Notes: generated from the sequence alone by a model not told the origin. A DNA stretch of 64,000 nucleotides from Chromatiales bacterium (GCA_050486285.1 JBJHCZ010000004.1:88196-152195), one strand, 5' to 3'; positions 7,341 through 34,535 are shown, numbered from the stretch's first letter. A program made the numbers and translations.

Positions 7341-7341
7341 G

Positions 7342-8880
<1,539 letters not shown>

Positions 8881-9131
8881 GGATTTATCTTATATCACGG
8901 GTTTTATTTATATAAAACAGATAACTGTTAAATATAACGTGTTGAGCGAGCCCTCCCGGGTCGACGACATGCTGATAATATCAACAAAAACATATAGATA
9001 AAAAAATAAATGGAGTTGGCATGATTCGTGGAATAGACCAGTTGCATCATGTCGGCGCGTACAGGGAGTTTCGCCAGGGACGGCGTGCCGGCATGGGCAA
9101 CAGGCACAGGGTGACACAGGAATCCGCAGAC
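8881..9131. promoter_or_regulatory. AT-rich divergent intergenic/leader region between the sigma-54 activator and the DUF2292-porin-sulfate transporter cluster (candidate promoter region; a weak TGGCAT-N5-GTGG sigma-54-like element around 9018-9035)
   Basis: Markedly AT-rich relative to surroundings (ttatttatataaaacagataactgttaaatataacg...); -24/-12 match is poor. Confidence 0.3.
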
Positions 9132-9335
9132 ATGGAATCGAAGCATCTGGACAAGCCGATAGACGACGCCGAAGAGGCGATCGTCTATCTGCGCGAGGCA
9201 CTCAGGACGATCCGCTTCGGATCGGTGGAATTCATCATCCACGAGGGCCGTGTGCTGCAGGTCGACCGCAAGGAGAAGCTGCGTGTCGATCCGCTTGCGG
9301 CCGTCAACCGCAGCAGGCAGCGCCCGGACGAATAA
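9132..9335 (+). CDS. DUF2292 (YezD-like) small protein
   Basis: Internal ATG preceded by AGGAA; ...ALRTIRFGSVEFIIHEGRVLQVDRKEKLRV... matches the DUF2292 core as I recall it; this family is commonly annotated beside sulfate ABC transporters. Confidence 0.55.
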   Translation: MESKHLDKPIDDAEEAIVYLREALRTIRFGSVEFIIHEGRVLQVDRKEKLRVDPLAAVNRSRQRPDE

Positions 9336-9455
9336 TCACTTCCTTTGTACCGACCGGACGACCGGAGGTTCCGTTTGATCCATCACATATCAGCACAGGG
9401 CGATCTGACCGGACCACCGGAAGGTGTTCGTGTTTGCACAATAGGAGCAGGAACA

Positions 9456-10502: not shown

Positions 10503-10527
10503 AACATTCATCAGGGAGCAATTAACC

Positions 10528-11610: not shown

Positions 11611-11616
11611 ACCGTC

Positions 11617-12480
11617 ATGGCGACCCTCGTACTGAAGGCTTCCCATCTGCCGCTGGTGGCCCGACGTTCGGTCATCCCCGGCTTCGGGTTGACGATGGGC
11701 TTCACCGTCGCCTACCTCGGCGTGCTGGTGTTGCTTCCATTCGCGGCGCTGGCGTTCAAGGCCGCAGAGCTGAGCCTCGCCGAGTTCTGGGCGATCGCCA
11801 CCACGCCGCGGGCAGTGGCGAGCTACCAGCTGTCGTTCATGGCATCGGCCATCGCCGCCGGACTCAACATGGTCTTCGGGCTGCTCACGGCGTGGGTGCT
11901 GGTACGGTACGAGTTCCCGGGCAAGCGGTTGATCGACGCGCTGGTGGACCTGCCCTTCGCGCTGCCCACCGCGGTGGCGGGCATCGCGTTGACCGGGATC
12001 TACGCGACCACCGGCTGGGTCGGCCAGTACTTCGAGCCGTTCGGCATCCGCATCGCCTATAGCCAGATCGGCATCGTGGTGGCGCTGACCTTCATCGGCC
12101 TGCCTTTCGTGGTGCGCTCGGTGCAGCCGGTCCTCGCCGACCTCGAGCCGGAGGTGGAGGAGGCGGCGGCGACGCTCGGCGCCGGCCGGTTGAGGACCTT
12201 CACGCGCGTGGTGCTGCCCGCCGTGCTGCCCGCGCTGTTGTCCGGCGTGGCCCTGGCCTTTGCGCGCGCGGTGGGCGAGTTCGGGTCGATCATCTTCATC
12301 GCCGGCAACATCCCCTTCCAGACCGAGATCACGCCGCTGCTGATCTTCATCCAGCTCGAGCAGTACAACTTCGCGGCGGCGGCGGTCCTGGGTAGCGTCA
12401 TGCTGTTGTTCGCCTTCGTCATGCTGCTGGTCATCAACGGCCTGCAGCTGTGGGCGAGTTCGCGCGGAGGGCGGCACTGA
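11617..12480 (+). CDS. cysT: sulfate ABC transporter permease
   Basis: 287 aa; CysT/CysU-like MetI-family permease (EAAATLGAG loop motif). Confidence 0.88.
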   Translation: MATLVLKASHLPLVARRSVIPGFGLTMGFTVAYLGVLVLLPFAALAFKAAELSLAEFWAIATTPRAVASYQLSFMASAIAAGLNMVFGLLTAWVLVRYEFPGKRLIDALVDLPFALPTAVAGIALTGIYATTGWVGQYFEPFGIRIAYSQIGIVVALTFIGLPFVVRSVQPVLADLEPEVEEAAATLGAGRLRTFTRVVLPAVLPALLSGVALAFARAVGEFGSIIFIAGNIPFQTEITPLLIFIQLEQYNFAAAAVLGSVMLLFAFVMLLVINGLQLWASSRGGRH

Positions 12481-13363
12481 TGAGCGGTCTGCAGAATCGG
12501 CGGGTGGCGCTCCGCGATCCGGCCTGGATGCGCTTCACCGCCATCGGGGTGATGCTGACCTTCATCGGCCTCATGCTGGTATTGCCGTTGACCGCCGTGT
12601 TCTACGAGGCCTTCCGCCAGGGTCTGGCCGTGTACTGGGCCTCGATCACCGAGCCGGATGCGCTGTCGGCGATTCGCCTGACACTGCTGGTGGTTGCCTT
12701 CGCGGTCCCCGCGAACATCGTTTTCGGGCTCGCTGCGGCCTGGGCCATCACCAAGTTCCAGTTTCGCGGCAAGCAGGTGCTGATCTCGCTGATCGACATG
12801 CCCTTTGCGGTCTCCCCGGTCGTCGCCGGGCTGATCTACGTATTGCTGTGGGGCAGCGGCGGCTGGTTCGGTCCGTGGCTGACCGAGCATGACCTGCGGG
12901 TGATCTATGCAGTGCCGGGCATCATCCTGGTAGTGACCTTCGGGACCTTCCCGTTTGTCGCCCGCGAGCTGATTCCGCACATGCAGGCGCTGGGCAACGA
13001 CCACGAGGAGGCGGCGCTGACGCTGGGCGCCAGCGGCCTGCAGACCTTCTTCCGCGTGACCTTGCCGGCAGTGAAATGGTCACTGTTGTACGGCGTGATC
13101 CTGTGCAACGCGCGCGCAATGGGGGAGTTCGGCGCGGTGGCGGTGGTATCGGGCCGCATCCGCGGCGAGACCAACACCATGCCGCTGCACATCGAGGTGC
13201 TCTACAACGAGTATCAGCTCGGCGCCGCCTTTGCGGTCGCCTCGCTGCTCGCCGGGCTGGCGCTGGTGACACTGGTGGTCAAGAGTGTCGTCGAATGGCG
13301 GTCCGAACGTGATCTCAAACGCGCCGCGCAAAGCGGCGCCCGGCAGAGTCAGGAGAGTTTGTC

Positions 13364-13367
<4 letters not shown>
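12480..13367 (+). CDS. cysW: sulfate ABC transporter permease
   Basis: Start overlaps cysT stop (TGATG); CysW-like ([21 protein letters not shown]). Confidence 0.88.
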
Positions 13368-14491
<1,124 letters not shown>

Positions 14492-14506
14492 GGGGAGGTT
14501 GTTGTA

Positions 14507-15853
14507 TTGAATACGTCTGGCCCGCGGACCATCGGCCTCGGCGAGGCCTTCAGCGTCTGGCTGCGCATCGGCCTGCTGAGCTTCGGCGGTCCCGCCGGCC
14601 AGATCGCGCTGATGCAACGGATACTGATCGACGAGAAGCGCTGGCTCAGCGAGCGCCGTTTCCTGCATGCGCTGAACTACTGCATGCTGCTGCCCGGCCC
14701 GGAGGCGATCCAGCTCGCGATCTACATCGGCTGGATGATGCATCGCACGATCGGCGGGTTGATGGCGGGCCTGCTGTTCCTGCTGCCGGGCGTCGTCGCG
14801 CTGATGATCCTGAGCCTGGTCTATGCGCTGGCCGGCGACGTGCCGCTGGTCGAGGCGCTGTTCTTCGGCATCAAGGCGGCGGTGCTCGCGATCGTGATCG
14901 CGGCCGTGATCAAGGTCGCGCGAAAGGCGCTCGGTACACCGGTGCGTTACGGCATCGCCGCCGCGGCCTTTGTCGCGCTGTTTGCATTCGGCGTGCCGTT
15001 TCCGCTGGTGGTGTTGACGGCGGCCGTGGTCGGCTTTCTGGGCGGCTGGCAGCAGTGGCGCGGCTTTGAGCCGCCGAGTCACGGCAAGGCCGGGGACCAC
15101 ATCGACGAATCACACCTCGACACTGCTGCGCCCGGGCGGTGGTATCCGCTGCGCGTGCTCGCGGTCTGGCTGCCGCTGTGGATCCTGCCGACCGCGCTGT
15201 CCGCGTGGGCGCTCGGCCTGCACCATGTGTTCACGCAGACCGGCCTGTTCTTCAGCAAGCTTGCGCTGGTGACCTTCGGCGGGGCGTACGCGGTGTTGAG
15301 CTACATGGCGCAGCAGGCGGTCGAGCATCATGGCTGGGTCAGCGCCGGCGAGATGATGGACGGTCTCGGCCTCGCCGAGACGACGCCGGGGCCGCTGATC
15401 ATGGTCGTGCAGTTCGTCGGCTTCCTCGCCGGCTTTCGCGAGGGCGGCTTCGACCCGATCCTCGGCGCGGTGCTCTGCGGACTGCTCGCGACCTGGGCGA
15501 CCTTCGTGCCGAGCTTCCTGTTCATCTTCCTCGGCGCGCCGTATGTCGAGCAACTGCGCGGCCGACCCGCGCTCGGTGGCGCGCTCTCGGCGATCACCGC
15601 GGCGGTCGTCGGCGTGATCCTGAACCTTGCGCTGTGGTTCGGCATGCACGTCGTGTTCACCGAGGTCGGGAAGGTCGAGGCCGGCATCATCGATACGACG
15701 CTGCCGTCATTCGCGAGTATCGATGTGCTCGCGCTTGCGCTGGTGCTGTTCGCGCTGGTCTGCCAGTTCCTGCTCAGGCTCGGGCTGCTGGCGACACTGG
15801 GGCTGTGCGCGCTGGCCGGGGTGGGGCTGTGGGGGATCGGGCTGATTGCCTGA
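14507..15853 (+). CDS. chrA: chromate efflux transporter (CHR family, fused two-domain form)
   Basis: 448 aa; two homologous CHR halves (LSFGGPAGQIALM... and ...LVTFGGAYAVLSYM...), ~12 TM. Confidence 0.85.
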   Translation: MNTSGPRTIGLGEAFSVWLRIGLLSFGGPAGQIALMQRILIDEKRWLSERRFLHALNYCMLLPGPEAIQLAIYIGWMMHRTIGGLMAGLLFLLPGVVALMILSLVYALAGDVPLVEALFFGIKAAVLAIVIAAVIKVARKALGTPVRYGIAAAAFVALFAFGVPFPLVVLTAAVVGFLGGWQQWRGFEPPSHGKAGDHIDESHLDTAAPGRWYPLRVLAVWLPLWILPTALSAWALGLHHVFTQTGLFFSKLALVTFGGAYAVLSYMAQQAVEHHGWVSAGEMMDGLGLAETTPGPLIMVVQFVGFLAGFREGGFDPILGAVLCGLLATWATFVPSFLFIFLGAPYVEQLRGRPALGGALSAITAAVVGVILNLALWFGMHVVFTEVGKVEAGIIDTTLPSFASIDVLALALVLFALVCQFLLRLGLLATLGLCALAGVGLWGIGLIA

Positions 15854-16177
15854 AGATCAAGGAGGAATTCCGCGAACCCTTTCCATTGCCCGAAAGCCGA
15901 ACGCCGCCGACCGGCGAGCAAGCCGTCCTGCTCCACTGACGCCCTGAACCCACAGATTGGCTGACGATGCTGCGACCGGTAACGTGGCAGGGTTCCGTTC
16001 GGCAGCGCGGTCAGGCGGGGTGGTATTTCAGGAAGAAGTGGCTCGAGTCTGGGGTGCCGGGAGCGGAATTCAGGGCGGATTCCACGGCATCGAGTGGTTA
16101 CCGTGCCCACCGTGCCAGGCATCGGCGGTGAAGGACCGCTGGATGTGGTCAAGATGGGTGTTTATTCTTCCTTATAC
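15849..16177 (+). mobile_element. IS91-family element 3-prime end fragment (last ~10 codons of transposase-like ORF plus ~230 bp end region terminating in oriIS-like GGGTGTTTATTCTTCCTTATAC); direct repeat of 25036-25441
   Basis: ~80-90% identical by eye to 25150-25438, same orientation; C-terminal peptide ...LKIKEEFREPFPLPESRTPPTGEQAVLLH resembles the IS91/ISCR transposase C-terminus; terminal TTTATTCTTCCTTATAC resembles the IS91/ISCR oriIS end as I remember it. Confidence 0.6.
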
Positions 16178-16693
16178 TCCGAGTACCGCCTTCGGCCGCG
16201 GCAGCGTTGCGCCGAGCGCGGCCCAGGCACGGGTCCAGTCGTTGTCCTCAAGCGCGTTCATCGGATTGCCGTGACCGAGGAATAGCGCCGGCATGCCCAT
16301 CGTCACGACAATGCGGGCGCTCCTGCCGGACAGCAGCTTTTTGTCCATCATCCCGGGACCGGATTTCGCTAATGCGAATCCCGGCCGCATCGTCTGCTCG
16401 AGGAAACCCTTGAGCAGGGCGGGCATCGAGCCCAGCCACAGCGGATAGAGGATCACCAGGTGGTCAGCCCACGCGATGACCTGCTGGGCATCCCTGATTC
16501 CCGGCGGCGGGTTGCCATCAGACCAGTCATCCTGGGTGCGCAGCAGCGGGAATTCGAGCCTGGCGACGTCGATGATCCGGCATTCATGACCGCCCTGCGC
16601 AGCGCCCTCCCGGTAGGCCACCGCAAGCGCATGCCCGAAGCGATTGCCTTGCGGATCAGGATGACCCTGAATAACCGCTATGCGTTTGCCCAT
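16172..16693 (-). CDS. flavodoxin-like NAD(P)H-dependent oxidoreductase (NAD(P)H dehydrogenase (quinone) / YwrO-MdaB-KefF-like)
   Basis: 173 aa; MGKRIAVIQGHPD..., ...ADHLVILYPLWLGSMPALLKGFLEQ... typical of Flavodoxin_2 family; stop codon lies inside the IS91-like terminal sequence. Confidence 0.7.
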   Translation of the reverse strand: MGKRIAVIQGHPDPQGNRFGHALAVAYREGAAQGGHECRIIDVARLEFPLLRTQDDWSDGNPPPGIRDAQQVIAWADHLVILYPLWLGSMPALLKGFLEQTMRPGFALAKSGPGMMDKKLLSGRSARIVVTMGMPALFLGHGNPMNALEDNDWTRAWAALGATLPRPKAVLGV

Positions 16694-16725
16694 GGCGATC
16701 GTTCCCTGACATGAACACCGTTGAC

Positions 16726-18711
16726 TTACTCATTGAGACGGTAGGAGCTGTGCTCGTAGCTGTACGGCCCGAATAGCGCGTGAGCAAGGGCGGTGTCAAT
16801 TAGTGTGTTGTCCGGATGCGCAACTTCACTGTATGTCCCGTTACTGTATTTGTAATGATGCGGTGGCAGATCCTTCTGGAGGATGACAACGTCTTCACCG
16901 GACATATAAGCCTGCACGTTATTGTACTGCATGATCGCGCGGCCGTCTGATCTACTCCAGTCGTTCATTGTCAGGTCATGACCGATCATTGGATGCTCCG
17001 ATTTGATTCCCATGATCGACAACAGGGTCGGCAGCATATCAATTTGACTGGCGATGTTGCCATAGACGCGTGGACTGATACCGGCGCCGAGTATCAGACC
17101 CGGGATGCGAAAATGCTCGATCGGTACGTTACTGGATCCGTAGACACGGTCATTATGGTCTGCGATCACCAGAAAAATGGTGTTTTCGTAGTATGAAGAG
17201 TTCTTCGCCTTGTCAAAGAATCCCCCCAATGCGTGGTCCGCGTATTTGACCGCGTTATTGACAGTCTGCCTGTCAGCATCGAACAATTCTATTCTGTTAT
17301 CGGGATAGTCATAAGGTGAATGATTGGATGTCGAAAAGGCCAGGGTGAATGACGGCTGGCCATCGTCTTTCGATAAAACTTCATGCAACTTGTTGAACAG
17401 ATCCTCATCAGAAACACCCCAGGATCCCATATGGACGGGGTTGTCAAAATCGTTCTGATCAATGATTTCATCAAATCCGTTACCGACAAAAAACCGTCTC
17501 ATGTTGTCAAAATGACTTTCCCCGCCATACAGAAACCGGCTTTTATACCCTTCATTTTTCAGCAGCCGGGCCACCGTATAAAAACCACGTTGTGATTTTG
17601 GCAGCTTGACGACGCTGATGCTGGCGGTAGGTGGAAACCCGGTAATCACCGCCTCGATACCGCGCACCGAGCGTGTTCCGGTGGCATACAGGTTTTCAAA
17701 CCAGATCCCCTCATTGGCAAGCGCATCCAGTCTGGGTGTCAGGGGCAGGCCTCCCAGCCGGCCAACACGCTCAGCGCCAAGGCTTTCCTCGAGAATGATC
17801 ACCAGGTTGGGTTTACGCACACGGGAAACCGTTGGCAGTTGCGTGTGCAGCGTTGGAATATCGCCGGGCAAGAATGCGCCGGCTGGTATGTTCATGTGAT
17901 TCCTGACGGTCTCCAGCATGACATCATCGGCCATAAAGCCATAGCGAAACCCGCCATGTTTCTCTTCCTTGGTCTCGTAAATGGCGTACAACAGGGAGTA
18001 GGTGGAATTCAATGCGAGATCATTGACCATGAGGTCAGAGGTGATCGCCGCCTTACTGGGATTGGCAGGTCGATGATCGAGGGTTGATCTGGCAGCGGCA
18101 AACAACAGGACAATGACCAGGGGGGTCGCCAGCAGCGCCTGCCACCAGGTGTATCGCGCGCTGGCACTTGCAACCCTGGCCATGGCCATCCAGAAAAATA
18201 TCACGATGGCAGGCAGGACAATTACTGCCAGCAGGAGTTCAAATCTGTATGCGCCCCACAGTGTCGCGCCCACTTCCAGCGGATATTTCAGGTACTCGAC
18301 AAACAGGATGTTGGGCCTTGCATCGTATTGATGGATAAAGCTCGGAGTAGCCAGCTCCATGAAGACCATGAAACCGAAGCAGGCTACCAGCACCATCCGC
18401 AGGGCACGTTGCCAAAGTCGATGAGTCATGCGATGTAACGACATGAGTGGCGTCAGCATGGCGGGTAATATCAGGAGCTGGCCGATGAGGATCAGATCGA
18501 AGCGCAGGCCGGTCAGCAAGATCCGGGCAAGCGCTTCGGTATTCAGTACCCGGTCGAGTTGCCATAGCACCAGGCCAAGCCTCGATAAAGTCAGTAATGC
18601 CAGCGTCGCCAGAATAAATACAACGAACGGTACCATGGGGCCGGCAAGGGCGCGCAGCATGGTCCCGTTCTTTTCAGGGAAATATTTCGGTGTTTCTGTT
18701 ATCGCGTGCAT
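16726..18711 (-). CDS. LTA-synthase/phosphoglycerol-transferase family protein (N-terminal multi-TM domain plus extracytoplasmic sulfatase-fold domain; OpgB/MdoB- or LtaS-like)
   Basis: 661 aa; ~5 N-terminal TM helices then sulfatase-like domain; lower-GC codon usage than flanks. Confidence 0.75.
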   Translation of the reverse strand: MHAITETPKYFPEKNGTMLRALAGPMVPFVVFILATLALLTLSRLGLVLWQLDRVLNTEALARILLTGLRFDLILIGQLLILPAMLTPLMSLHRMTHRLWQRALRMVLVACFGFMVFMELATPSFIHQYDARPNILFVEYLKYPLEVGATLWGAYRFELLLAVIVLPAIVIFFWMAMARVASASARYTWWQALLATPLVIVLLFAAARSTLDHRPANPSKAAITSDLMVNDLALNSTYSLLYAIYETKEEKHGGFRYGFMADDVMLETVRNHMNIPAGAFLPGDIPTLHTQLPTVSRVRKPNLVIILEESLGAERVGRLGGLPLTPRLDALANEGIWFENLYATGTRSVRGIEAVITGFPPTASISVVKLPKSQRGFYTVARLLKNEGYKSRFLYGGESHFDNMRRFFVGNGFDEIIDQNDFDNPVHMGSWGVSDEDLFNKLHEVLSKDDGQPSFTLAFSTSNHSPYDYPDNRIELFDADRQTVNNAVKYADHALGGFFDKAKNSSYYENTIFLVIADHNDRVYGSSNVPIEHFRIPGLILGAGISPRVYGNIASQIDMLPTLLSIMGIKSEHPMIGHDLTMNDWSRSDGRAIMQYNNVQAYMSGEDVVILQKDLPPHHYKYSNGTYSEVAHPDNTLIDTALAHALFGPYSYEHSSYRLNE

Positions 18712-18721
18712 GTGAATCTGC

Positions 18722-19084
18722 CTACTTGAAAATGATTATTGCCCATATGACAACGACGTTTATCAGGCTGATAAAGACCGCTGCGGATCCCATATCCTTT
18801 GCGCGACCTGACAGCTCATGATGTTCAGGTCCGATCCGATCCACGATGGCTTCAACGGCCGAGTTCATCAGTTCAGTAATGATTACCAGCACCAGTGATG
18901 CGATAAGGATTGCGCGTTCAACATTGGTATCTCCCAGCCAGAGTGCAGCAGGCACCAACAGCAGGGCCAGCACCGCCTCCTGACGGAAAGCCGCCTCATT
19001 CCTGTAAGCAGAAGTCAAACCTTTCAGGGAATAACCCGCTGCGCTGATGATGCGTTTGTATCCTGTTTCCCCTTGCCTGGACAT
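18722..19084 (-). CDS. dgkA: diacylglycerol kinase
   Basis: Internal start MSRQGETGYKRIISAAGYSLKGL...; 120 aa; classic DgkA 3-TM pattern (NEAAFRQE, IITELMNSAVE). Confidence 0.85.
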   Translation of the reverse strand: MSRQGETGYKRIISAAGYSLKGLTSAYRNEAAFRQEAVLALLLVPAALWLGDTNVERAILIASLVLVIITELMNSAVEAIVDRIGPEHHELSGRAKDMGSAAVFISLINVVVIWAIIIFK

Positions 19085-19312
19085 GGCCGATGAAGGCGGC
19101 TCCTGACTGATCGATGAATAACGTGGGCGCATTCTATACAAGCGTAAAGTATGCATAGAAGACAGTTGACAGCGGAGTAAGTTCGTCAGTCATTGCACAC
19201 AGCGGAACTGAAGCCGGGACATCAGTAGCGGCGTGGCGCGTGAATACAGCCGGAATGACGCCGAACGGCCGACTCCCCCTGCTTATGTGACTGAAAAATA
19301 TGACGATGACGC

Positions 19313-19978
19313 TTATTTCTCCGGCAATGGAATCGACTCGGTCTCACTAGGCACCATCGCAAATCGCCCCGACTTCCAGTCAGTCTTCGCCTGCTCCAGG
19401 CGAACGCGCGAACTCGATACGAAGTTCCACCAGATATGGCGCGGGCCATCCATCGGTTCGCCGCCAAGCAGCATCAGGCGCGCCGCCCCGGCGGTCGCCG
19501 TCAGGCCTATCACCGCGCCGAGGCGGAACACGACGAGGCGGCCGGCCCCGAAACTGCTGCGTCCCGGCATCACATCGACGGTGCCGTCGAGTACGAACAT
19601 CGCCCGCTCCGCGTGTTCGACCGGCAACGACAGGCTCGCGCCCGCGGCGAGATCGACATCGGCATAAAACGTTTCCGAGATGGTCCCGACCGGCGAGACT
19701 GCGCCGGGCCGGATCGGCTGCACAAAGCCGAGGCTGTCGCGGTGCAGGATCTCTCCGGAGAATAGAGACGAGATAGAAGTTATCGAGCAGCCACTCTCCA
19801 GCGGGGTGATACGGTATAGTGCGGCGACAGCCGCTGTCCGGATTCTGCCGGTTTCGATCAGAACCGCTTCGTTATCTGTGAGCCGTCCCAGCAGGAGCCC
19901 GGGATACTTGCCTGTAGTGATGCGATGAGCCGTCGCGAGTCGAGCGCCGTGTTGCTTCATCTGCTCGGTGCCGAACAA
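19313..19978 (-). CDS. pirin-like cupin protein (possibly N-terminally short/atypical)
   Basis: C-terminal ...HIWWNFVSSSRVRLEQAKTDWKSGRF... matches the bacterial pirin C-terminal motif as I recall it; canonical N-terminal HPHRG metal motif not seen. Confidence 0.5.
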   Translation of the reverse strand: MFGTEQMKQHGARLATAHRITTGKYPGLLLGRLTDNEAVLIETGRIRTAAVAALYRITPLESGCSITSISSLFSGEILHRDSLGFVQPIRPGAVSPVGTISETFYADVDLAAGASLSLPVEHAERAMFVLDGTVDVMPGRSSFGAGRLVVFRLGAVIGLTATAGAARLMLLGGEPMDGPRHIWWNFVSSSRVRLEQAKTDWKSGRFAMVPSETESIPLPEK

Positions 19979-20197
19979 CTCGGTCCGCAGCGGCGACTCG
20001 CTGCCAAACGATTTATCTGTCAGGCCATTTCCGCCTCGATGTGGTGCAGCGGAAACCGCACCAGCAGCCCGTCCTCGCCATAGTTGACTGGCGCCAACAA
20101 GGCTTCGTGACAGAAAGGTGGATAATTAGTCCTGTGCTGAATGCACCCGGGGTGACGCCCATGCAAGCGACTGCCTGTAGTCGCGCATATCCCGGTA

Positions 20198-20356
20198 TCA
20201 AATCCTTCCCATGATAAGAAGGACAAGTAGCACGATCAAAATGACACCGACAATTCCGCTCGGCGCATAGCCCCAATTGTTGCTGTGATTCCAGACGGGA
20301 ATAACGCCCAGAAGAAGCAGAACCAGGACAATCAACAGGATTGTCGAAAGCGACAT
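20198..20356 (-). CDS. DUF3309 small membrane protein
   Basis: 52 aa: MSLSTILLIVLVLLLLGVIPVWNHSNNWGYAPSGIVGVILIVLLVLLIMGRI (two TM, WGY motif). Confidence 0.6.
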   Translation of the reverse strand: MSLSTILLIVLVLLLLGVIPVWNHSNNWGYAPSGIVGVILIVLLVLLIMGRI

Positions 20357-20479
20357 GACGGTATGCCCTCGAAGATAGAGAAGCTCCACAGTATCCGGTG
20401 TCGATTGCATGATCCGTGCGCTAGCGTACCGTCGGGGTAGCGTGATTCGGATAGTTTGTGACTTTATCGAGGGATCATC

Positions 20480-20704
20480 ATGGGCACATCTCGAATTGCA
20501 GCCGTTGTTCTGATACTGGTTGGCGTGCTCGCACTGGCGTATGGCGGATTCACCTACACCAGCGACACGCACGAGGCCAGGGTAGGATCGCTCAGCATGT
20601 CGGTCGATGAGCGGAAGCGCGTCAATATACCGGTATGGGCCGGCGCGGGCGCTGTCGTGGCCGGTGGCCTGCTGTTCCTGTTTTCCGGGCATCGTCGGCG
20701 ATAG
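20480..20704 (+). CDS. small two-TM membrane protein, unknown function
   Basis: 74 aa; hydrophobic N- and C-terminal segments flanking a polar loop. Confidence 0.35.
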   Translation: MGTSRIAAVVLILVGVLALAYGGFTYTSDTHEARVGSLSMSVDERKRVNIPVWAGAGAVVAGGLLFLFSGHRRR

Positions 20705-20787
20705 CGGCGAGTCAGTCCCGTGACAGCGAGCTGTGCCTGTCGCTGCTGTTTCCATTTTCACTAAACCTCAATAAATGGAGAAACGTT

Positions 20788-21189
20788 ATGCACGAATCAA
20801 CCAGAAGTCGTCTTGCGTGGCGCGTCTGTATGCCAGCAATCGCAACCTTGACCGTCATGCTGCTGAGTGCGTGCGGATCTGCACCCGTAGCGCCCACCGA
20901 ATCCCTCGCAGCTGCCCGTGACGCTATCGCCAACGCGGAACAGTCGGATGCGCGGCAGTTTTCCGGCGCCGAACTCGACGAAGCTCGCCATCAACTTGAA
21001 CAGGCGGAAGCAGCCGTCAGCGCCGAGAATATGATCGAAGCGGATCGACATGCCAAACAGTCACGTGTCGTCGCCGAACTTGCCTCGGAAAGGGCTGCTA
21101 CGGCCAAGGCTACTGAAATCAACCGGCAGATGGGCAGGGACGCCGAAGCCCTGAGAGAGGAAATGAAGCGTACAGGAGATCAGCAATGA
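20788..21189 (+). CDS. DUF4398-type lipoprotein
   Basis: GGAG RBS; lipobox LLSAC; alpha-helical acidic body (ESLAAARDAIANAEQSDARQFSGAELDEARHQLEQAEAA...) typical of DUF4398 proteins that precede OmpA-family genes. Confidence 0.6.
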   Translation: MHESTRSRLAWRVCMPAIATLTVMLLSACGSAPVAPTESLAAARDAIANAEQSDARQFSGAELDEARHQLEQAEAAVSAENMIEADRHAKQSRVVAELASERAATAKATEINRQMGRDAEALREEMKRTGDQQ

Positions 21190-22172
21190 ACCGGATAAAT
21201 TACACACAGACGCTGCGTGGCAGTGCTTTCACAGCAGTCATCATCGCTACTTTCACGCTTGGCGCATGCGCCAGTGCGCCGACCAGCCCCCAGGGTTCAG
21301 CAGAAGTCCGCAGCAAGTTGACTGCGTTGCAGAACGATCCTGAGCTGGCCCCGCGGGCAAGGGTACAAATCCGCGAGGCAGAGGCTGCGGTACGTGAGGC
21401 GGAAGAACCCATTTCAAGGAAAGTCGCAAAGAAAGACGAAGGCCTCGGCGAGCATCGCGTCTTCATGGCGGATCGCAGGGTGGAGATCGCGAGGGCCGTA
21501 GCCGTCAGACAGTTGGCCGAGGATCAGCGCAAGCGGCTCGGAGAAGAGCGTGATCAGGCGCGCCTGCAGGCGCGTACGATCGAAGCGGACAGGGCGCGCA
21601 GCGATGCCGAACGTGCGCGCGCAGAGACAGGGAGAGCGCAAAGTGAAGCAGAGGCAGCTCGCCTGGCAAGGGCGGAGTCCTCGGCTGAATCACAGCGAAT
21701 GGCGACGCAGGCCTCTGAAGAAGCCGCACGCCACGCAGCAGAATTACAGGGGCAGATCGATGCCTTGCAGGCAGAGGCGACCGACCGCGGTCTGGTAGTA
21801 ACGCTGGGAGACGTGTTGTTTGCCACCGGTAGCTCCGAGTTGCAACCAGGGCCCAACAGTAACCTGAACAAACTGGTGAGCTTTCTCAAGAAGTACCCCG
21901 ATCAACGTGTACTGATTGAAGGGCATACCGACAGCGTCGGTAGCGCCGATTTCAATATGGCACTGTCGCAGCGTCGCGCGGAGGCCGTCAGAAACTATCT
22001 GACACGAGAGGGTGTCGCATCGCAACGGCTGACCACCTCGGGGATGGGCATGGATCACCCGGTTGCAAGCAACGCCACGGCTACCGGCCGCTTGCAGAAC
22101 CGCCGTGTCGAGATCGTCATCGAGAGACCTCAGCTGAAGTCGCCTCAGGCGACCACTGGATTCCGTCAGTAG
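21186..22172 (+). CDS. OmpA-family lipoprotein with long coiled-coil region and C-terminal OmpA/peptidoglycan-binding domain
   Basis: 328 aa; lipobox LGAC; coiled-coil (QRKRLGEERDQARLQARTIEADRARSDAERARAE...); OmpA-C motifs (NSNLNKLVSFLKKYPDQRVLIEGHTDSVGS...NMALSQRRAEAV...RRVEIV); ATGA overlap with upstream gene. Confidence 0.8.
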   Translation: MNRINYTQTLRGSAFTAVIIATFTLGACASAPTSPQGSAEVRSKLTALQNDPELAPRARVQIREAEAAVREAEEPISRKVAKKDEGLGEHRVFMADRRVEIARAVAVRQLAEDQRKRLGEERDQARLQARTIEADRARSDAERARAETGRAQSEAEAARLARAESSAESQRMATQASEEAARHAAELQGQIDALQAEATDRGLVVTLGDVLFATGSSELQPGPNSNLNKLVSFLKKYPDQRVLIEGHTDSVGSADFNMALSQRRAEAVRNYLTREGVASQRLTTSGMGMDHPVASNATATGRLQNRRVEIVIERPQLKSPQATTGFRQ

Positions 22173-22347
22173 TTTCACGCTGATTGCGGAGGCGGCTGAG
22201 ACCGGGCAGTCGAATGGCGATGACAACGTGCTTGCATTATGAGATCTGACCGGAACACACGCAGAGGAAAAATCAGGGAATCATGAATAAGGCTACGTGC
22301 CTGTTATCTGTCTGTTCGATTATCTACCTCCATGGAGTGATACTTAC

Positions 22348-22941
22348 ATGAAAATATATCTGCCCGGAAATACCATGGTTGCCACGACTATTGTAGTCCT
22401 GCTCACGCTCGGTATTGCAGCCTGTGACAATTCCTCCGATGAAACCCGGTCAGAGTCACGCAGCGACAGCATGACTGCGGCTATCTCTGACGCAGCCATG
22501 ACCGCTCAGGTCAAGGCGAAACTGGCGACCGCAGGCGATTTGAAGAGTTCCGATATCAGCGTCTCAACGGCCAATGGCGTGGTTACGCTTGAAGGTACAG
22601 TGGCCAATGCAGACGCCAAAGCCCGTGCGGAGCAGGTGGCCAATTCTGTCGATGGTGTCAGGAGCATAAGGAATAACCTGCACGCCGGCTCAGGGGGCAT
22701 CAGCATGGCAGGCGCAGAGCGGGTCATGTCCGATAGCTGGATCACCACCAAGGTGAAATCCGAGTTGCTGGCCGATAGCCTGAGCAAGGGTTTCGAAGTC
22801 AATGTCGAAACCAGACAAGGCGTAGTAGCCCTGTCAGGTGAAATGAAGGATCAGGCAGCCGTCGATCATGTTACGGAGATTGCCGAGGGCGTAGAGGGCG
22901 TCAAGAATGTCGATACATCGGGATTGACAGTCAGCGACTGA
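22348..22941 (+). CDS. OsmY-like periplasmic lipoprotein with two BON domains
   Basis: Lipobox LGIAAC; two BON repeats (ISVSTANGVVTLEGTVANADAKARAEQVANSVDGVRSI / VNVETRQGVVALSGEMKDQAAVDHVTEIAEGVEGVKNV). Confidence 0.8.
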   Translation: MKIYLPGNTMVATTIVVLLTLGIAACDNSSDETRSESRSDSMTAAISDAAMTAQVKAKLATAGDLKSSDISVSTANGVVTLEGTVANADAKARAEQVANSVDGVRSIRNNLHAGSGGISMAGAERVMSDSWITTKVKSELLADSLSKGFEVNVETRQGVVALSGEMKDQAAVDHVTEIAEGVEGVKNVDTSGLTVSD

Positions 22942-23204
22942 AATCGTGCGCAGCAGTGGCAGTCGAGGTCTCTTTATGAGGCCCCGTTATTTTCTTCCCC
23001 TCATCGACGGATTAATGACAGTAACGCTGACATAGAAAAATTTAATGCAGCGGATTAAACGAGCAACCGAGCGCAACCTGAAGGATGCGGCTTCGTTCAT
23101 CAAGGAATGATCAAGGACAGGGTATGAGCTGTCGTGAATAAAATCTGGCGGCAGGGGGCAAAAACCCCTTGCCACACGCTTTATCAACTCTGATTGGAGG
23201 CATC

Positions 23205-23387
23205 ATGAATAATCAGAACCAGGTAAAGGGCCGTGCCCGCGCTGTAAAGGGCAAGGGCAAGGAAATCGCCGGCAAGCTGGTTGGTAACCGGCGTCTGGAA
23301 TTGAAAGGAAAATTGCAGAAAGCCGCCGGTAAAGCGCAAGCGGAAGCCGGTGATCTTCAGGAGGACATCGAGGAGAAGACAAGATGA
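23205..23387 (+). CDS. CsbD-family general stress protein
   Basis: GGAGG RBS; 60 aa MNNQNQVKGRARAVKGKGKEIAGKLVGNRRLELKGKLQKAAGKAQ... typical CsbD/YjbJ. Confidence 0.75.
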   Translation: MNNQNQVKGRARAVKGKGKEIAGKLVGNRRLELKGKLQKAAGKAQAEAGDLQEDIEEKTR

Positions 23388-23782
23388 ACTATGTATTGCC
23401 CGAAACCTCTGCACGCAGGTCATTGCACGAGATTATCCCCGGGCAGATCATGATGAGCATAGACGCCTTTATCGGAGACAACGTCTATAACCCCAAGGGC
23501 GAACGCCTGGGTAATATCCAGGACATCGTCCTCGACATTCAGAGCAACAAGCTGCGTTATGCCATTGTATCGTCGGGAGGCTTCCTCGGTATGGGCAGGC
23601 GGCTGCTGGCGGTGCCGTGGAATGCGCTGGATCTGGACCCGGACAACGGGAAAATTCTGCTCAATCTGGAGGCCACGCAGATCAGCAACGCACCCGGGTT
23701 TGACAGAAATCATTGGCCCAACATGAGCGACAGTGCCTGGGCAGCCAGTATCCATTCCTATTACGGGACCAGCCAGGATTGA
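23384..23782 (+). CDS. PRC-barrel domain protein
   Basis: ATGA overlap with csbD-like gene; VYNPKGERLGNIQDIVLDIQSNKLRYAIVSSGGFLGMGRRLLAVPWNAL matches PRC-barrel pattern. Confidence 0.7.
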   Translation: MNYVLPETSARRSLHEIIPGQIMMSIDAFIGDNVYNPKGERLGNIQDIVLDIQSNKLRYAIVSSGGFLGMGRRLLAVPWNALDLDPDNGKILLNLEATQISNAPGFDRNHWPNMSDSAWAASIHSYYGTSQD

Positions 23783-23852
23783 ACGGGCGTGGATGTATCC
23801 CACCCTGCCATGCGCACTCTATGGCGCAGTTTATCAAACAGGAGATCTACCA

Positions 23853-24194
23853 ATGAGTAAAGCAACAGATACCATTACGGGAAACTCGGGTCCGGGATCG
23901 CATGTTCTCGAGAAGGGCGTCGATCGCCTGGCGAAGGGCGCCCATAATCGAATTGATTCCGCATCCGATGCCGCGGGCCCGGCGATCGATCGCATGACCT
24001 CCCGCGCGCATAATGCAGTAAACAAGGCGGATGAAGTAGCGACGCAGGCGGCCGTGGCGATCGAAGCGTTTGGCGTCAAGACTGAAGAACTGGCCGCCAC
24101 CGGTGTGAATTATATGCGCAAGCATCCGCTGCTTTCACTGAGTCTGGCGGTCGCTGCCGGCTATGTACTGAGTCGTCTGCTGGCGTCCCGCTGA
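23853..24194 (+). CDS. DUF883 family membrane-anchored stress protein (ElaB/YqjD/YgaM-like)
   Basis: Internal start MSKATDTI with GGAG RBS; helical N-part, C-terminal anchor ...YMRKHPLLSLSLAVAAGYVLSRLLASR typical of YqjD/ElaB. Confidence 0.75.
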   Translation: MSKATDTITGNSGPGSHVLEKGVDRLAKGAHNRIDSASDAAGPAIDRMTSRAHNAVNKADEVATQAAVAIEAFGVKTEELAATGVNYMRKHPLLSLSLAVAAGYVLSRLLASR

Positions 24195-24208
24195 CAGACG
24201 CGCCGATT

Positions 24209-24649
24209 ATGATGATTCAGCGCGGCGACCCCGGGACAGGTTCCGGGGCAGAGGCCGGTGACGCGCCAGCGCCGCCAACAGGTCTGATCCGGGATGTGAT
24301 CGGCCTCGTGCATGAAATCAGGGAGCAGGCGCACGACCACCTGCAACTGGCGGTTCTTGAGACGCGGCTGTCGATCAACAGTCTGCTGGCCATGGCGATC
24401 ATTGCGATCGTCATTGCCATACTGCTGATCAGTGTATGGCTTGCGCTCGTGGGCGCTGCGGTCATGGCGCTGATCGCTGTCGGCCTCAGCCCTGCGGTCG
24501 CCCTGCTGGCGATGGGAGCCTGCAATCTCGCAGGCGCGTTACTGGGCTGGCTGCTGATACGGCGCCTGAGCAACTCGCTGGGTTGGCCTGCAACACTGCG
24601 TGCGCTCAGGTCGGAGTCGTCATCCAAAGGCGAGGGTCCATCGACATGA
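24209..24649 (+). CDS. YqjE-like (DUF1469, holin-superfamily-like) inner-membrane protein
   Basis: 146 aa with two central TM helices; position immediately after DUF883 gene mirrors E. coli yqjD-yqjE-yqjK. Confidence 0.55.
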   Translation: MMIQRGDPGTGSGAEAGDAPAPPTGLIRDVIGLVHEIREQAHDHLQLAVLETRLSINSLLAMAIIAIVIAILLISVWLALVGAAVMALIAVGLSPAVALLAMGACNLAGALLGWLLIRRLSNSLGWPATLRALRSESSSKGEGPST

Positions 24650-24996
24650 GCATTCCCCCGGATCCGGGAGGCCCGGGTAAGTCGGCCTCCCTCAGGAAGA
24701 GGATCGGTATCCTCGAAATCAGGATGAGTGAGCGTCGTCAGGGGATCGGCGACACCCTGTCCAGCATCAATGTGACGGTCCATACCCGAATGGTGTCGGT
24801 GGGCGCCCTGGTCGCCGCAGGCCTGTTTGGGGCCCTGCTCGAGAAACGCCACAGGATCAGGAACTGGTCCTTGCTGACGATGCTCAGTGCAGTCGATATC
24901 ACGATATGGAAGTTGTTCTCGCTGTACTCGAGCGCCGTGGCCTCTGCGCCCGATTATGGCGCCGGTAGTTACAACAAAACCGGTCCCGGAGCATGA
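24646..24996 (+). CDS. YqjK-like hypothetical protein
   Basis: Internal ATG overlapping yqjE-like stop (ATGA); ~116 aa with one TM; assignment by position only. Confidence 0.35.
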   Translation: MSIPPDPGGPGKSASLRKRIGILEIRMSERRQGIGDTLSSINVTVHTRMVSVGALVAAGLFGALLEKRHRIRNWSLLTMLSAVDITIWKLFSLYSSAVASAPDYGAGSYNKTGPGA

Positions 24997-25035
24997 CGCC
25001 CGGCAAGGCGTAGCGGCGATGGCCGCCATACACTA

Positions 25036-25441
25036 TTTTATATACTCTACTTTGCGGTGCCAGACTTGCCGGATCTGCGGCGGCACGATGAAAGTCATCG
25101 CCTGCATCGAAGACCCCGCAGTGATCCAGAAGATCCTCGATCACCTGAAGATCAAGGAGGAAACCCGCGATCCTTTTTCGTTTCCCGAAAGCCGGGAGCC
25201 GCTGGCCGGTGAGCAGGCCGTCCTGCTCGACTGACGCCCTGAACCCACAGATGGACTTACGATGCTACGACCGGAAACTTGGCAGGGTTCCGTTCGACAA
25301 TACGGTTAGACGGAGTTGTCTTTCAGGAAGAAGTGATTCAGGGCGGGCTCGACGGCATCGAATGGCCACCGTGCAATCCATTGGCTGTGAAAGACCGCTG
25401 GTCGCGGTCACAATGGGTGTTTATTCTTCTTATTACACTCG
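25036..25441 (+). mobile_element. IS91-family element 3-prime end fragment (C-terminal ~60 codons of transposase incl. CxxC...KILDHL motif, then ~200 bp end region terminating in oriIS-like GGGTGTTTATTCTTCTTATTACAC); direct repeat of 15849-16177
   Basis: Peptide ...LRCQTCRICGGTMKVIACIEDPAVIQKILDHLKIKEETRDPFSFPESREPLAGEQAVLLD resembles IS91/ISCR transposase C-termini; downstream DNA homologous to 15849-16177. Confidence 0.65.
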
Positions 25442-26467
25442 CCGCCACACAATGACCTCGCCGGCGCGCAGAGGGACCAGCACATCATCGCCGAGCGGGT
25501 ATTGCGGCGGGACCGTCCACGGCTCCCGATGCAGCGTGATGCGATCGGTATTGCGCGGCAGGCGATAGAAGTCGGCGCCGTGATGGCTGGCGAAGCCCTC
25601 GATCCGGTCGAGCGCGCCGGCTTGCTCGAAGGCCTCGGCATAAAGCTCGATCGCGGCATGCGCGCTGTAGATGCCGGCGCAGCCGCAGGCGGTCTCCTTG
25701 CGTCCGCGCGCGTGCGGCGCGCTGTCGGTGCCGAGGAAGAACTTCGGACTGCCACCGGTCGCGGCGCCAAGCAGCGCGGCGCGATCCTCTTCGCGCTTCA
25801 GCACCGGCAGACAATAATAGTGCGGGCGCACGCCGCCGGCGAGCAGCGCGTTGCGGTTGTAGAGCAGGTGATGCGCGGTGATCGTCGCGGCGACGGTCGC
25901 CGGCGCGGCGTGCACGAAGTCGACGGCGGCCCGCGTCGTGATGTGCTCGAAGACGATGCGCAGCCGCGGGAGGCGCCGAACCAGCGGTTCGAGGACCTCA
26001 TCGATGAAGCGCGCCTCGCGGTCGAAGATGTCGACATGCGCGGCGGTGACCTCGCCGTGAACCAGCAGCGGCAGGTCGACGACCTGCATCGCCTCGAGTA
26101 CCGGCATGACTTTTTCGATCGCGGTGACGCCGCTGTCGGAGTTCGTCGTTGCGCCGGCCGGATAGAGCTTCACCGCGGCGACACTGCCGTCGCCGGCCGC
26201 GCGGCGGATCTCGTCGGGCGCGGTGCGGTCGGTCAGGTACAGCGTCATCAGCGGTTCGAAGCGGACGCCCTCGGGGACATGGGCGAGGATGCGTTCACGA
26301 TAGGCCAGCGCCTGCGCGCAGGTCGTCACTGGCGGCGCCAGGTTCGGCATCACGATCGCGCGCGCGAAGCGCGCCGCGCAATGCGGGACCGTCGTCGCCA
26401 GCGCGGCGCCGTCGCGCAGGTGGATATGCCAGTCGTCAGGGCGGACGAGGGTCAGTGCGGTCTTCAT
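25433..26467 (-). CDS. pyrC: dihydroorotase (homodimeric class II type)
   Basis: Internal start [20 protein letters not shown]; colinear with E. coli PyrC ([20 protein letters not shown]); stop codon lies in the IS91-like end. Confidence 0.9.
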
Positions 26468-26500
26468 CGGATGGCCGGGCGGCGGCTCCCGCAACTGTGA

Positions 26501-27511
26501 TCAGCTGTCCGTCGGCAGTTCCGCCATCCGGCCCGTCATGCGGTCGATCGCCGCGACGCCGAACAGCCGGAAGCCGCGCAGCGCCTCGGGCGGGTGCCCG
26601 GCGACGCAGACGATCGGCTTGCCGTGGCAGTGTCCCATGATCAGCGGCCGGCCCGAGCGCATCGGCACGCCGTCGACGACCAGCTTGCCGCAGGCGCGCA
26701 GGAGATCGGAGATGAAGTCGCGGCCGCCGACCGCGGTGCCGCCGGAGATCACGATCATGTCGGAATGGCGCAGCGCCTCTTTCACCGAGGCGACGAAGCC
26801 GTCGAAGTCGTCCCTCATGATGCCGGCGATGCGCGGGATGCCGCCGGCCTGCTGTACCGCAGCGGCGAGCATCACCGAGTTGCTGTCGCGGATTGCGCCG
26901 GGCCTGAGCGTGCCGGTGTAGGGGATGACCTCGTCGCCGGAAGAATAGATCGTCACGATCGGCTGCGCCGACACGGTGACCTGGTTGACGCCGGTGCTCG
27001 CGATCGTGCCGATCTCGACCGGGCCGAGCAGGGTGCCGACCGGCACCGCGACCGCGTCCTGCATCAGGTCGCAGCCCTGTTCCTCGATGAAGAAACGCGG
27101 CGGAAACGGCCGGGTGATCGTGAAACCGCCGTCCTCGACCTTGGCCTCCCACTGGCGGACGACCGAGTAGGGTCCCTCGGGCACGAGGCTGCCGGTCGCG
27201 ACGGCGACGCCTTCGCCGCGGGCAAAGGCGGGGCAGGTCTCGTCGCCCGGCTTGACCCTGCCCTTGATCCGGAACGCGACCGGGTGGTCTTCAGAGGCGC
27301 TGCTGGTATCGTCGGTATGGACCAGGAAGCCCTCGACGATCGCGCGCGGGTACGGCGGCATGTCGGTCGGCGCGATGACGTCGGCGGCGAGCACCCGCCC
27401 GGCGGCCTGCTCCAGCGGACAGTTCTCGACTGCCAGCGAGCGCAGGGGAATCGCATCGACGAATTTCCGTTGTGCCTCGCTCAGTGGGGACGGCTCGCTC
27501 ATCGGGGACAC
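26501..27511 (-). CDS. MoeA-family molybdopterin-binding protein (MoeA_N + MoCF-biosynthesis domains; C-terminal MoeA domain apparently absent)
   Basis: 336 aa; MoCF domain (SGGTAVGGRDF...); canonical MDGYA motif replaced (RAIVEGFLV). Confidence 0.5.
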   Translation of the reverse strand: MSPMSEPSPLSEAQRKFVDAIPLRSLAVENCPLEQAAGRVLAADVIAPTDMPPYPRAIVEGFLVHTDDTSSASEDHPVAFRIKGRVKPGDETCPAFARGEGVAVATGSLVPEGPYSVVRQWEAKVEDGGFTITRPFPPRFFIEEQGCDLMQDAVAVPVGTLLGPVEIGTIASTGVNQVTVSAQPIVTIYSSGDEVIPYTGTLRPGAIRDSNSVMLAAAVQQAGGIPRIAGIMRDDFDGFVASVKEALRHSDMIVISGGTAVGGRDFISDLLRACGKLVVDGVPMRSGRPLIMGHCHGKPIVCVAGHPPEALRGFRLFGVAAIDRMTGRMAELPTDS

Positions 27512-27562
27512 CTCTCTCGGGTTCTTCGCAGCCTAACAGGATAACCGATTCACACCCGCGGG

Positions 27563-29047: not shown

Positions 29048-29222
29048 GTAATTCCGTCACTTTTCATGGGCCTGTTATTGACCTCATCGGGGAAAAACCG
29101 GATGATACTCCGTTGCTGTGCGTCTATCGACCGGCCCGGCTCTGGAAGCAGGGAAACGCAGAACAATATCAATGAAAACAGGCAAGTTGACAAATATGAC
29201 TCAGAGTAGGGACGGCTAGCCC

Positions 29223-31267: not shown

Positions 31268-31373
31268 GGCCTGCGTGACAAGGGGTCAGGACGCCCGCGG
31301 AGGTCGACGGGCGCCCTGGCCCCTTGAAGCTTGAAGATCCATAAAATTCGCTGTCCGCAATCCAGGGAAGAGC

Positions 31374-34511: not shown

Positions 34512-34535
34512 GGCACTATCGGGAAAACATCATTC

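Follow-up and report, generated by a model that had tools for sequence, protein, structure and literature searches.

A decayed ISCR2-related array with probably captured genes between chrA and pyrC in a Chromatiales genome

The sequence analysed here, a 64,000-nucleotide (nt) stretch of a Chromatiales bacterium genome (GCA_050486285.1 JBJHCZ010000004.1:88196-152195; hereafter the window), contains two remnants of rolling-circle elements of the ISCR type between the convergent host genes chrA (chromate transporter) and pyrC (dihydroorotase). In the IS91 family, transposition runs from oriIS, downstream of the transposase gene tnpA, to terIS, upstream of it (PMC13181058), and the general structure of ISCR elements shares this layout (PMC13393415). 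The two remnants, A on the chrA side and B on the pyrC side, each keep the tail of a tnpA and an oriIS end, lie in the same orientation, and bracket a block of genes with a lower guanine-plus-cytosine (GC) content than the surrounding chromosome. On balance, the interval is probably what remains of an ISCR array, now fossil, at a place between convergent host genes where insertions recur, its cargo acquired through one-ended capture by a unit of the type represented by remnant B.

Two direct repeats between chrA and pyrC

An earlier note, made from the sequence alone, had described two fragments in this interval that share about 300 bp of homology in the same orientation. Alignment bears out the description (83% identity over 298 aligned positions) and refines the extents to 15844-16177 (remnant A) and 25060-25436 (remnant B). 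The direct repeat falls into two ungapped blocks, 15844-16065 with 25139-25360 (222 nt, 80% identity) and 16104-16177 with 25363-25436 (74 nt, 80%). When gaps are allowed, 248/298 positions agree, with indels of 29 nt and 9 nt, and the pair is the biggest dispersed repeat of the 64-kb window. The start of A is placed at 15844-15850, with the chrA stop codon TGA (15851-15853) inside the first homologous bases, while B reaches 5′ to about 25060, beyond its homology with A.

As the note had it, each fragment runs from the last codons of a transposase gene (29 in A, 57 in B) to an oriIS-like end; the peptide and both terminal sequences that it quoted were correct. An untranslated tail and a subterminal hairpin precede the terminal motif in both. 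Within the window, the 15-mer GGGTGTTTATTCTTC is found only at the two repeat ends, once in each (chance expectation, none). Just 5′ of the terminal motif, both remnants can form a 6-bp stem with a 5-nt loop (GACCGC/G[C/T]GGTC). Folding energies of these hairpins are not significantly lower than those of shuffled sequence (z = -0.6 to -1.6), so the hairpin argument is one of position alone.

Relationship of the repeats to ISCR2

ISCR2, also called ISVsa3 or CR2, is an IS91-family rolling-circle element of the SXT/R391 integrative and conjugative elements (ICEs), of GIsul2 and of many resistance plasmids. The coding part of remnant B (25062-25243) matches the 3′ end of the ISCR2 tnpA at 75–79% nt identity (blastn, 2,920 plasmid records), and the gene is annotated in those plasmid records as 'IS91-like element ISVsa3 family transposase'. 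At the protein level, B corresponds to amino acids (aa) 441–497 of the 497-aa ISCR2 transposase (61% aa identity, E = 6e-15, at 25061-25231; tblastn). A tblastn search with the same transposase across the 64 kb found nothing besides this segment, which agrees with the note's statement that no intact transposase is present. Of a Y2 HUH transposase, with its zinc ribbon and Y2_Tnp catalytic domain, the window holds C-terminal tails only (29 and 57 codons). The 115-aa open reading frame (ORF) holding the B tail gave no match in a Pfam scan, because the tail falls outside the Y2_Tnp domain, and copy A gave no blastn match on plasmids, because its coding part is too short.

The non-coding ends point to the same family. 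Read in two plasmid contexts, the 3′ end of ISCR2 terminates in GGGCGTTTATTCTTCCTATAC, 233 nt past the stop codon; the corresponding distance is 238 nt in A and 202 nt in B, which is typical of the family, and the remnant ends, GGGTGTTTATTCTTC(C)TTATAC, match this oriIS. A scan of metagenomes with a shared 17-mer gave 102 matches, of which 80 loci were examined and about one quarter of those 80 were real ISCR ends. These ~22 genuine ends come from several lineages, some with transposases 80–88% identical to ISCR2, and nearly all finish in GGGTGTTTATTCTTCCTATACT(C/A), after which the sequences diverge. The likeness of the C-terminus and both ends to IS91/ISCR elements, which the note had proposed, thus finds support in the ISCR2 match, in the ISCR2 oriIS and in the metagenomic ends. 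Both remnant termini depart from the near-invariant CCTATAC, A by a 1-nt insertion and B by losing its last bases. The bases flanking oriIS begin T[C/A] in most of ~20 related ends, or CT[C/A]N with the final C of the motif included. ISCR2 and L109 also have, at the equivalent place, a 6-bp stem with a 5-nt loop, of other sequence (GTCCAA/TTGGAC).

The untranslated region of A and B, from the stop codon to the last ~20 nt, is only ~54–58% identical to that of ISCR2. A-type copies (A, L084, L085 and the left fragment of L191) are mutually 89–99% identical, with A 92% identical to L084 and 89.5% to the chrA-adjacent fragment of L085, and B is 82–87% identical to them. The L084 fragment is 73% identical to the ISCR2 transposase over aa 348–487. 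By these values, A, B and the L084 and L085 metagenome fragments form a separate lineage within the ISCR2 clade. For a related 85-aa ISCR tail, P0002, the closest annotated relatives are ISVsa3/IS91-family transposases (64–71% identity). P0002 has 7,359 cluster representatives at E ≤ 0.001, of which the top 150 are nearly all short (68–450 aa). Their shortness fits metagenomes rich in ISCR 3′ fragments, but can also be put down to contig ends and clustering.

Sequence upstream of 25060 has no significant similarity to ISCR. An AT-rich patch at 25027-25052 was considered as a third oriIS-like end or as a terIS and was rejected: it resembles neither the ISCR2 terIS nor plasmid sequence, and its match to upstream ISCR sequence is not significant (886/5000 shuffles score equally).

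An empty site and sister lineages

The ChrA C-terminus is native, its last residues (...GIGLIA*) being identical in a 94%-identical relative (P0006). On the other side, the final codons of pyrC and its stop TAA (25433-25435) sit within the ISCR end. PyrC finishes in WRRV*, compared with WR[ILM]xx(x)* in ISCR-free relatives, and homologues cover residues up to 342–344; the protein lacks its last one or two residues, its stop codon being supplied by the ISCR end.

The host is an uncultured gammaproteobacterium; relatives of its ChrA are found in metagenome-assembled genomes labelled Gammaproteobacteria or Aquisalimonadaceae. L086 (GCA_020845975.1, ChrA 80% aa identity) has the gene order cysPTWA-chrA (+) followed by pyrC (-)-moeA (-). 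It aligns with window positions 5830-15835 and 25461-27502, with 79 bp there in place of 9.6 kb in the window, and ~30 bp separate its chrA and pyrC stop codons. This syntenic arrangement indicates that the chrA–pyrC interval of the window is an insertion, and that chrA and pyrC ancestrally converged on a very short spacer. The suggestion of a captured island in the earlier note, for which it proposed looking at chrA–pyrC adjacency in relatives, is therefore well founded. In a PyrC scan of GTDB, the 80 loci listed were all at ≤ 71% aa identity and none lay near chrA or moeA, and the chrA contexts of more distant relatives (L087, L192–L194) were not syntenic. No target-site duplication is visible at the window junctions, and the empty site of L086, at ~79% identity, is too diverged for a base-exact junction. 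The chrA/A junction lies within CCTGA microhomology and is reproduced by a ~75-bp deletion (GCCTGA to ACCTGA) of an L085-like arrangement. The B/pyrC junction is found again, at 100% identity, in Logan contig L083, which comes from an independent read set and is no test of excision.

Closer relatives have ISCR pieces at the same site, with other DNA beside them. L085 (JGI sample 3300078499) is 90.9% identical to window positions 9639-15853 (6.2 kb, to the chrA stop) and carries, shortly 3′ of the chrA stop, an A-type fragment with a perfect consensus end. After this fragment come unrelated AT-rich DNA, IS3-type (rve) fragments and a protease-like ORF, and at the contig end a second ISCR tnpA in the same orientation, 5′-truncated at ~aa 170. 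On the pyrC side, the ISCR sequence abutting pyrC in L190 (88.6% identity with window positions 25398-36461) amounts to no more than ~40 bp of an end, beyond which other genes follow. L191 (86% identical, from the same sample as L085) has, in the orientation of the window, an ISCR 3′ fragment with oriIS, a Fic gene, a 67-bp ISCR end and pyrC. In the window, L190 and L191 alike, the pyrC frame terminates inside the ISCR end, at junctions that differ by 1–18 nt. Next to pyrC in L195, L196 and L086 (83%, 80% and 79% identical) there is no ISCR sequence. Within these genomes, the distribution suggests that the site was colonised in the clade of at least ~86% identity and that its content has turned over since. 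As closer relatives have ISCR end-pieces with different cargo, the chrA/pyrC spacer appears to be a recurrent ISCR landing place. The neighbourhood of A-type fragments varies: in the window and L085 they follow chrA, whereas L084 has one behind an unrelated gene. All ISCR copies examined at the locus and in relatives are 5′-truncated and keep oriIS, starting at aa ~170, ~338, 441, ~451 and 469 or surviving as the 67- and 40-bp pieces.

An oriIS end, a few kb of unrelated genes and a same-orientation ISCR follow one another in L085, L191, L101 and L143, each with different cargo (the ISCR pieces lie at 6279-6641 and 12242-12472 in L085, and at 1485-1551 and 2945-3097 in L191). L131 has a further arrangement at 5924-6055, where only 2 nt separate a 26-nt copy of the ISCR terminus from the 104-nt ISCR end-piece downstream of it, leaving two oriIS termini nearly back to back. 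L195 (PyrC 85% aa, 83% nt identity) has, in place of an ISCR piece, another type of HUH transposase gene beyond pyrC (1455-2417), with the domains Y1_Tnp and Bac_DnaA_C. Single-strand transposons seem to be drawn to the region 3′ of pyrC.

Genes and base composition of the interval

Between the remnants, 16178-25049 has a GC content of 56.9%, against 66.4% at 5000-15843 and 67.8% at 25437-36000, so that the lower GC that the note had judged by eye is confirmed by windowed values. The trough is the deepest and longest of the window, with a minimum of 47–51% at 17.0–17.7 kb, and individual island genes range from 48 to 64%. Coordinates and family matches are collected in Table 1.

Table 1. Features of the chrA–pyrC interval and its flanks (window coordinates)
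Feature	Position	Strand	Evidence or remark
chrA, chromate transporter, left flank	14507..15853	+	Pfam Chromate_transp, E = 2e-73
ISCR remnant A (A-type)	15844..16177	+	tnpA tail, 3′ untranslated region, oriIS end; direct repeat of B
Transposase tail of remnant A, last 29 codons and stop, LKIKEEFREPFPLPESRTPPTGEQAVLLH*	15850..15939	+	aligned in frame with the B, L084 and L085 tails
Subterminal hairpin of A, GACCGC-TGGAT-GTGGTC	16134..16150	+	upstream of the oriIS motif
Terminal oriIS motif of A, GGGTGTTTATTCTTCCTTATAC	16156..16177	+	1-nt insertion relative to the consensus ...CTTCCTATAC
Flavodoxin-fold NAD(P)H oxidoreductase, 3′-truncated; left cargo edge	16172..16693	-	Pfam Flavodoxin_2, profile positions 1-154 of 198
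Sulfatase-superfamily membrane protein (LTA-synthase / phosphoglycerol-transferase type)	16726..18711	-	Pfam Sulfatase, E = 8e-48
dgkA, diacylglycerol kinase	18722..19156	-	Pfam DAGK_prokar, E = 2e-36
Decayed pirin gene	19313..19978	-	Pirin_C full-length; Pirin N-domain only at profile positions 53-80, E = 0.008
DUF3309 small membrane protein	20198..20356	-	Pfam DUF3309, E = 2e-20
DUF4398 lipoprotein (start codon picked by eye)	20788..21189	+	Pfam DUF4398, E = 1e-8
OmpA-family protein, DUF4398-like N-terminus	21186..22172	+	Pfam OmpA, E = 6e-25
Two-BON-domain protein, OsmY-like	22297..22941	+	Pfam BON, E = 6e-37, two stretches
PRC-barrel protein	23384..23782	+	Pfam PRC, E = 2e-16
Phage_holin_3_6 / YqjE-like membrane protein	24209..24649	+	family match
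ISCR remnant B (B-type)	25060..25436	+	tnpA last 57 codons (25061-25234), 3′ untranslated region, damaged oriIS end
Subterminal hairpin of B, GACCGC-TGGTC-GCGGTC	25393..25409	+	perfect 6-bp stem; upstream of the terminal motif
Terminal motif of B, GGGTGTTTATTCTTCTTATTAC	25415..25436	+	degenerate; fits a ~12-nt deletion across the end/flank junction relative to L191
pyrC, dihydroorotase, right flank	25433..26467	-	Pfam Amidohydro_1

The gene content only partly matches the 'coherent stress module' of the earlier note. Most of the cargo can fairly be labelled 'envelope/osmotic stress', but the flavodoxin-fold gene lacks ~40 C-terminal residues, its stop TAA being provided by the oriIS-A end, and the pirin gene has an intact C-terminal domain with most of its N-terminal domain gone, so that the module is partly non-functional. 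Together with the patchy GC content, these truncated and decayed genes suggest that the block was pieced together from two or more captured segments. Compared with plasmids, the cargo gave distant single-gene matches only (65–71%), the nearest plasmid homologue of the sulfatase gene being annotated 'LTA synthase family protein' (65% nt identity), and no close relative of the block was seen on known plasmids. Two ORFs adjoining the YqjE-like gene (23853-24194 and 24646-24996) had no family match. A promoter and terminator scan of the island gave a site count no higher than in shuffled sequence; there is no tRNA in the window, and no recombinase domain in the island ORFs scanned.

A rival reading is that the ISCR pieces are bystanders. 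They could be independent, prematurely terminated insertions, dead on arrival in a hotspot, with the cargo supplied by illegitimate recombination or by another element. Such an origin would suit the 5′ truncation, with oriIS kept, of every ISCR copy at the locus and in relatives, and the IS3-type rve fragments of the L085 island and the Y1_Tnp gene after pyrC in L195 indicate that the site attracts several element types. We nevertheless regard it as a lesser possibility, given that the low-GC block is bounded, with single-base precision, by oriIS-A on its left and by the start of remnant B on its right, that the succession of oriIS, cargo and ISCR recurs with different cargo in L085, L191, L143 and L101, and that no integrase, tRNA or other transposase was found within 15.8–25.5 kb.

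Far less plausible still is a currently active composite unit, in which the 8.9-kb block could be excised or moved by recombination between the copies or by transposition. The direct orientation of the repeats and the oriIS-like ends of both would allow it. It sits badly with the lack of a transposase in the 64 kb, with copies only 83% identical, with pseudogenes in the cargo, and with damage (the 1-nt insertion in A, the loss of the tip in B) to a motif almost invariant among ~20 other ends. For the same reasons, and because the unit is unseen elsewhere, the locus appears to be a fossil, with nothing here mobile on its own today. The earlier note's further idea of a 'new ISCR-like mobilisation unit' does not survive these observations: the window lacks a transposase, damage affects both ends, and no other context has been seen for the unit.

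Origin of the array

The comparisons among relatives indicate that an ISCR2-related rolling-circle element colonised the site in the clade of this genome, with its oriIS against the last pyrC codons. Remnant A is the survivor of an older resident: the ~91%-identical L085 has an A-type fragment right after chrA and then quite different DNA. The cargo lies upstream of remnant B, which is where an ISCR would collect DNA and favours a B-type unit built elsewhere. A diverged B-type ISCR may have gained DNA upstream of its tnpA in one or more donor genomes through one-ended transposition, replication from oriIS running past a missed or lost terIS, and the two cargo segments with truncated edge genes suggest at least two such capture steps. 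In the IS91 family, termination fails in 1–14% of events, and in up to ~50% without Orf121, with adjacent DNA beyond the 5′ end being mobilised; the cis requirement is satisfied by 82 bp from the oriIS end together with the neighbouring tetranucleotide when TnpA acts in trans (PMC13181058). The unit, running from the truncated flavodoxin gene through the yqjE-like operon to tnpA-B and oriIS-B, would then have inserted between oriIS-A and pyrC. By re-using the place beside the resident oriIS, it would have produced the head-to-tail order of oriIS-A, cargo, ISCR-B with oriIS-B, and pyrC. Its tnpA could have been lost afterwards; alternatively, the gene could already have been truncated, a transposase acting in trans having moved the unit. 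Both junctions may then have suffered small deletions, of ~75 bp at the chrA/A junction via the CCTGA microhomology and of ~12 nt at the B/pyrC junction.

The same layout could also arise if an ISCR and its upstream cargo were copied as a circle that entered by homologous recombination with a resident ISCR, both tnpA genes being deleted later. This route predicts the observed order and orientation exactly, with the old junction between oriIS and pyrC, and a circle model attributed to Toleman and colleagues in 2006 is the textbook account of ISCR1 complex integrons and of ISCR2-floR-ISCR2 arrays. However, A and B are just 83% identical over ~300 bp, whereas host lineages that differ in cargo are ~91% identical, suggesting that, by the time the cargo arrived, divergence between the copies probably already precluded homologous recombination. 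Along its whole length, moreover, the left copy is A-type and not a chimera with a B-type 3′ part, and two independent large tnpA deletions would be required. We consider the circle improbable. Of the two routes of mobilisation that the earlier note had named, one-ended rolling-circle capture is thus the one we favour, while recombination between the copies is unlikely at 83% identity, a value too low for a recent duplication.

Several points weigh against one-ended capture by a B-type unit at a recurrently used site. The empty site is known from a single relative, which is only ~80% identical. The three pyrC junctions in the window, L190 and L191 are compatible with one old junction and small deletions, and repeated precise re-use of the target is unproven. 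The end-pieces on the pyrC side of L190 and L191 are closer to A than to B, which makes the proposed order of events provisional. Remnant B and the entire cargo unit were found in this genome only, with no other context, so that the mobility of the unit is read from its structure alone. No terIS-like sequence was found to the left of either remnant by comparison with the ISCR2 terIS region, and no intact transposase of A or B type was recovered, the closest long public relative of the ISCR tail being a 450-aa protein at 68% identity (among the best 150 of 7,359 cluster representatives). Finally, no experiment has yet demonstrated rolling-circle transposition of an ISCR element (PMC9376610).

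Comparison with known systems

Set beside known systems, the locus is a decayed capture array of the ISCR2 clade, which involves a known gene-capture mechanism and no new element type. It shares with ISCR2 a homologous transposase C-terminal tail, the terminal motif GGG[C/T]GTTTATTCTTCCTATAC, a similar distance from stop codon to end, and the 6-bp/5-nt subterminal hairpin; 5′-truncated remnants retaining oriIS also occur in ISCR2, for example beside sul2. It differs from ISCR2 in its 3′ untranslated region, which at ~54–58% identity is missed by blastn, and in its setting, an array on an environmental chromosome whose cargo is not antibiotic resistance and for whose A/B lineage no intact member was found.

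Two same-orientation ISCR-oriIS copies around captured genes likewise form the sandwich layout of ISCR2-floR-ISCR2 and of ISCR1 complex class 1 integrons. For ISCR28, a gene captured 'sandwiched' between two sequential oriIS is reported in the summary of Yuan et al. 2024 given in PMC12772301. As far as that summary goes, the ISCR28-armA/sul4 sandwiches resemble the window in having a remnant ISCR-oriIS upstream, a second same-orientation ISCR-oriIS downstream and captured genes between them. Unlike in sandwich arrays, where at least one intact ISCR is expected, both copies in the window are remnants and belong to two sub-lineages 83% identical; the array also occupies a chromosomal intergenic spacer, and its cargo differs between sister lineages.

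The one-ended transposition of IS91 and IS1294 is similar in its start at oriIS, its missed termination and the co-mobilisation of DNA beyond the 5′ end, as well as in the absence of a target duplication and in an oriIS end served by a transposase in trans (all proposed here for the window; PMC13181058). The flank beside window-type oriIS ends differs, being mostly T[C/A] and not the CTTG/GTTC of IS91 (PMC13181058). Non-autonomous Helitrons offer a functional analogy, in that they keep only a conserved 3′ hairpin and terminus, carry captured gene fragments upstream and depend on a transposase in trans. They involve a different protein family in a different domain of life, and we do not claim membership.

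ISCR elements have been studied almost wholly for their role in spreading antibiotic resistance via plasmids and ICEs. The locus provides a clear chromosomal, non-resistance instance of ISCR gene capture, within a natural series of four related environmental genomes that have ISCR end-pieces at one intergenic site, plus a relative with the empty site. Across the series the cargo consists of non-resistance genes (envelope/stress genes, a Fic gene, a protease-like gene). As read here, the series documents how ISCRs build and then abandon chromosomal islands, and it supplies both consensus and naturally damaged oriIS ends for comparison; the picture of how ISCRs work is unchanged by it.

Other observations

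Remnant B (window 25060) and the truncated ISCR2 beside sul2 (L002, 2509) share codon 441 as their start, at ATC/GAGAC. In PLSDB, 5′ boundaries of intact ISCR2, from several plasmid contexts, lie at L001 positions 1051, 1057 and 1061-1062, and these fall on or next to an ATCGAG at L001 1054-1062; the sole other ATCGAG of the element is at 2497-2502. ATCGAG could mark a point within the element where transposition terminates or the DNA breaks; with only two robust cases, chance could also explain the coincidence, which we offer as no more than a lead. Two further candidates were set aside. A breakpoint hotspot at codons 440-442 was downgraded, since the homology of L144 continues upstream (68/5000 shuffles). 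The left fragment of L085 is not a codon-441 case: its 38-bp 'spacer' is not significantly ISCR-like and the fragment starts at ~aa 451.

A more general and rather doubtful extension is that ISCR 3′ end-pieces are non-autonomous, oriIS-only units, generated at preferred break or termination points in tnpA, which carry upstream DNA, are moved in trans and land preferentially beside a resident oriIS. If this were true, the chromosomal spacer would act as a cassette-like array, with different contents coming and going in sister lineages.

Two features elsewhere in the window are separate from the array. At 36862-37308 (-), an ORF for a PIN-domain protein (VapC-like toxin) lies in a smaller patch of 58–60% GC at 36–38 kb; its neighbouring ORFs have no family match, and the patch may be a toxin-antitoxin insertion. 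At 31385-31569 and 31790-31974 there is a tandem-like repeat of 185 nt at 88% identity. The syntenic gene of L190 encodes a 1,038-aa protein with two Biotin_lipoyl domains, and the repeat is probably a duplicated lipoyl domain of a fused E2/E3 dehydrogenase component.

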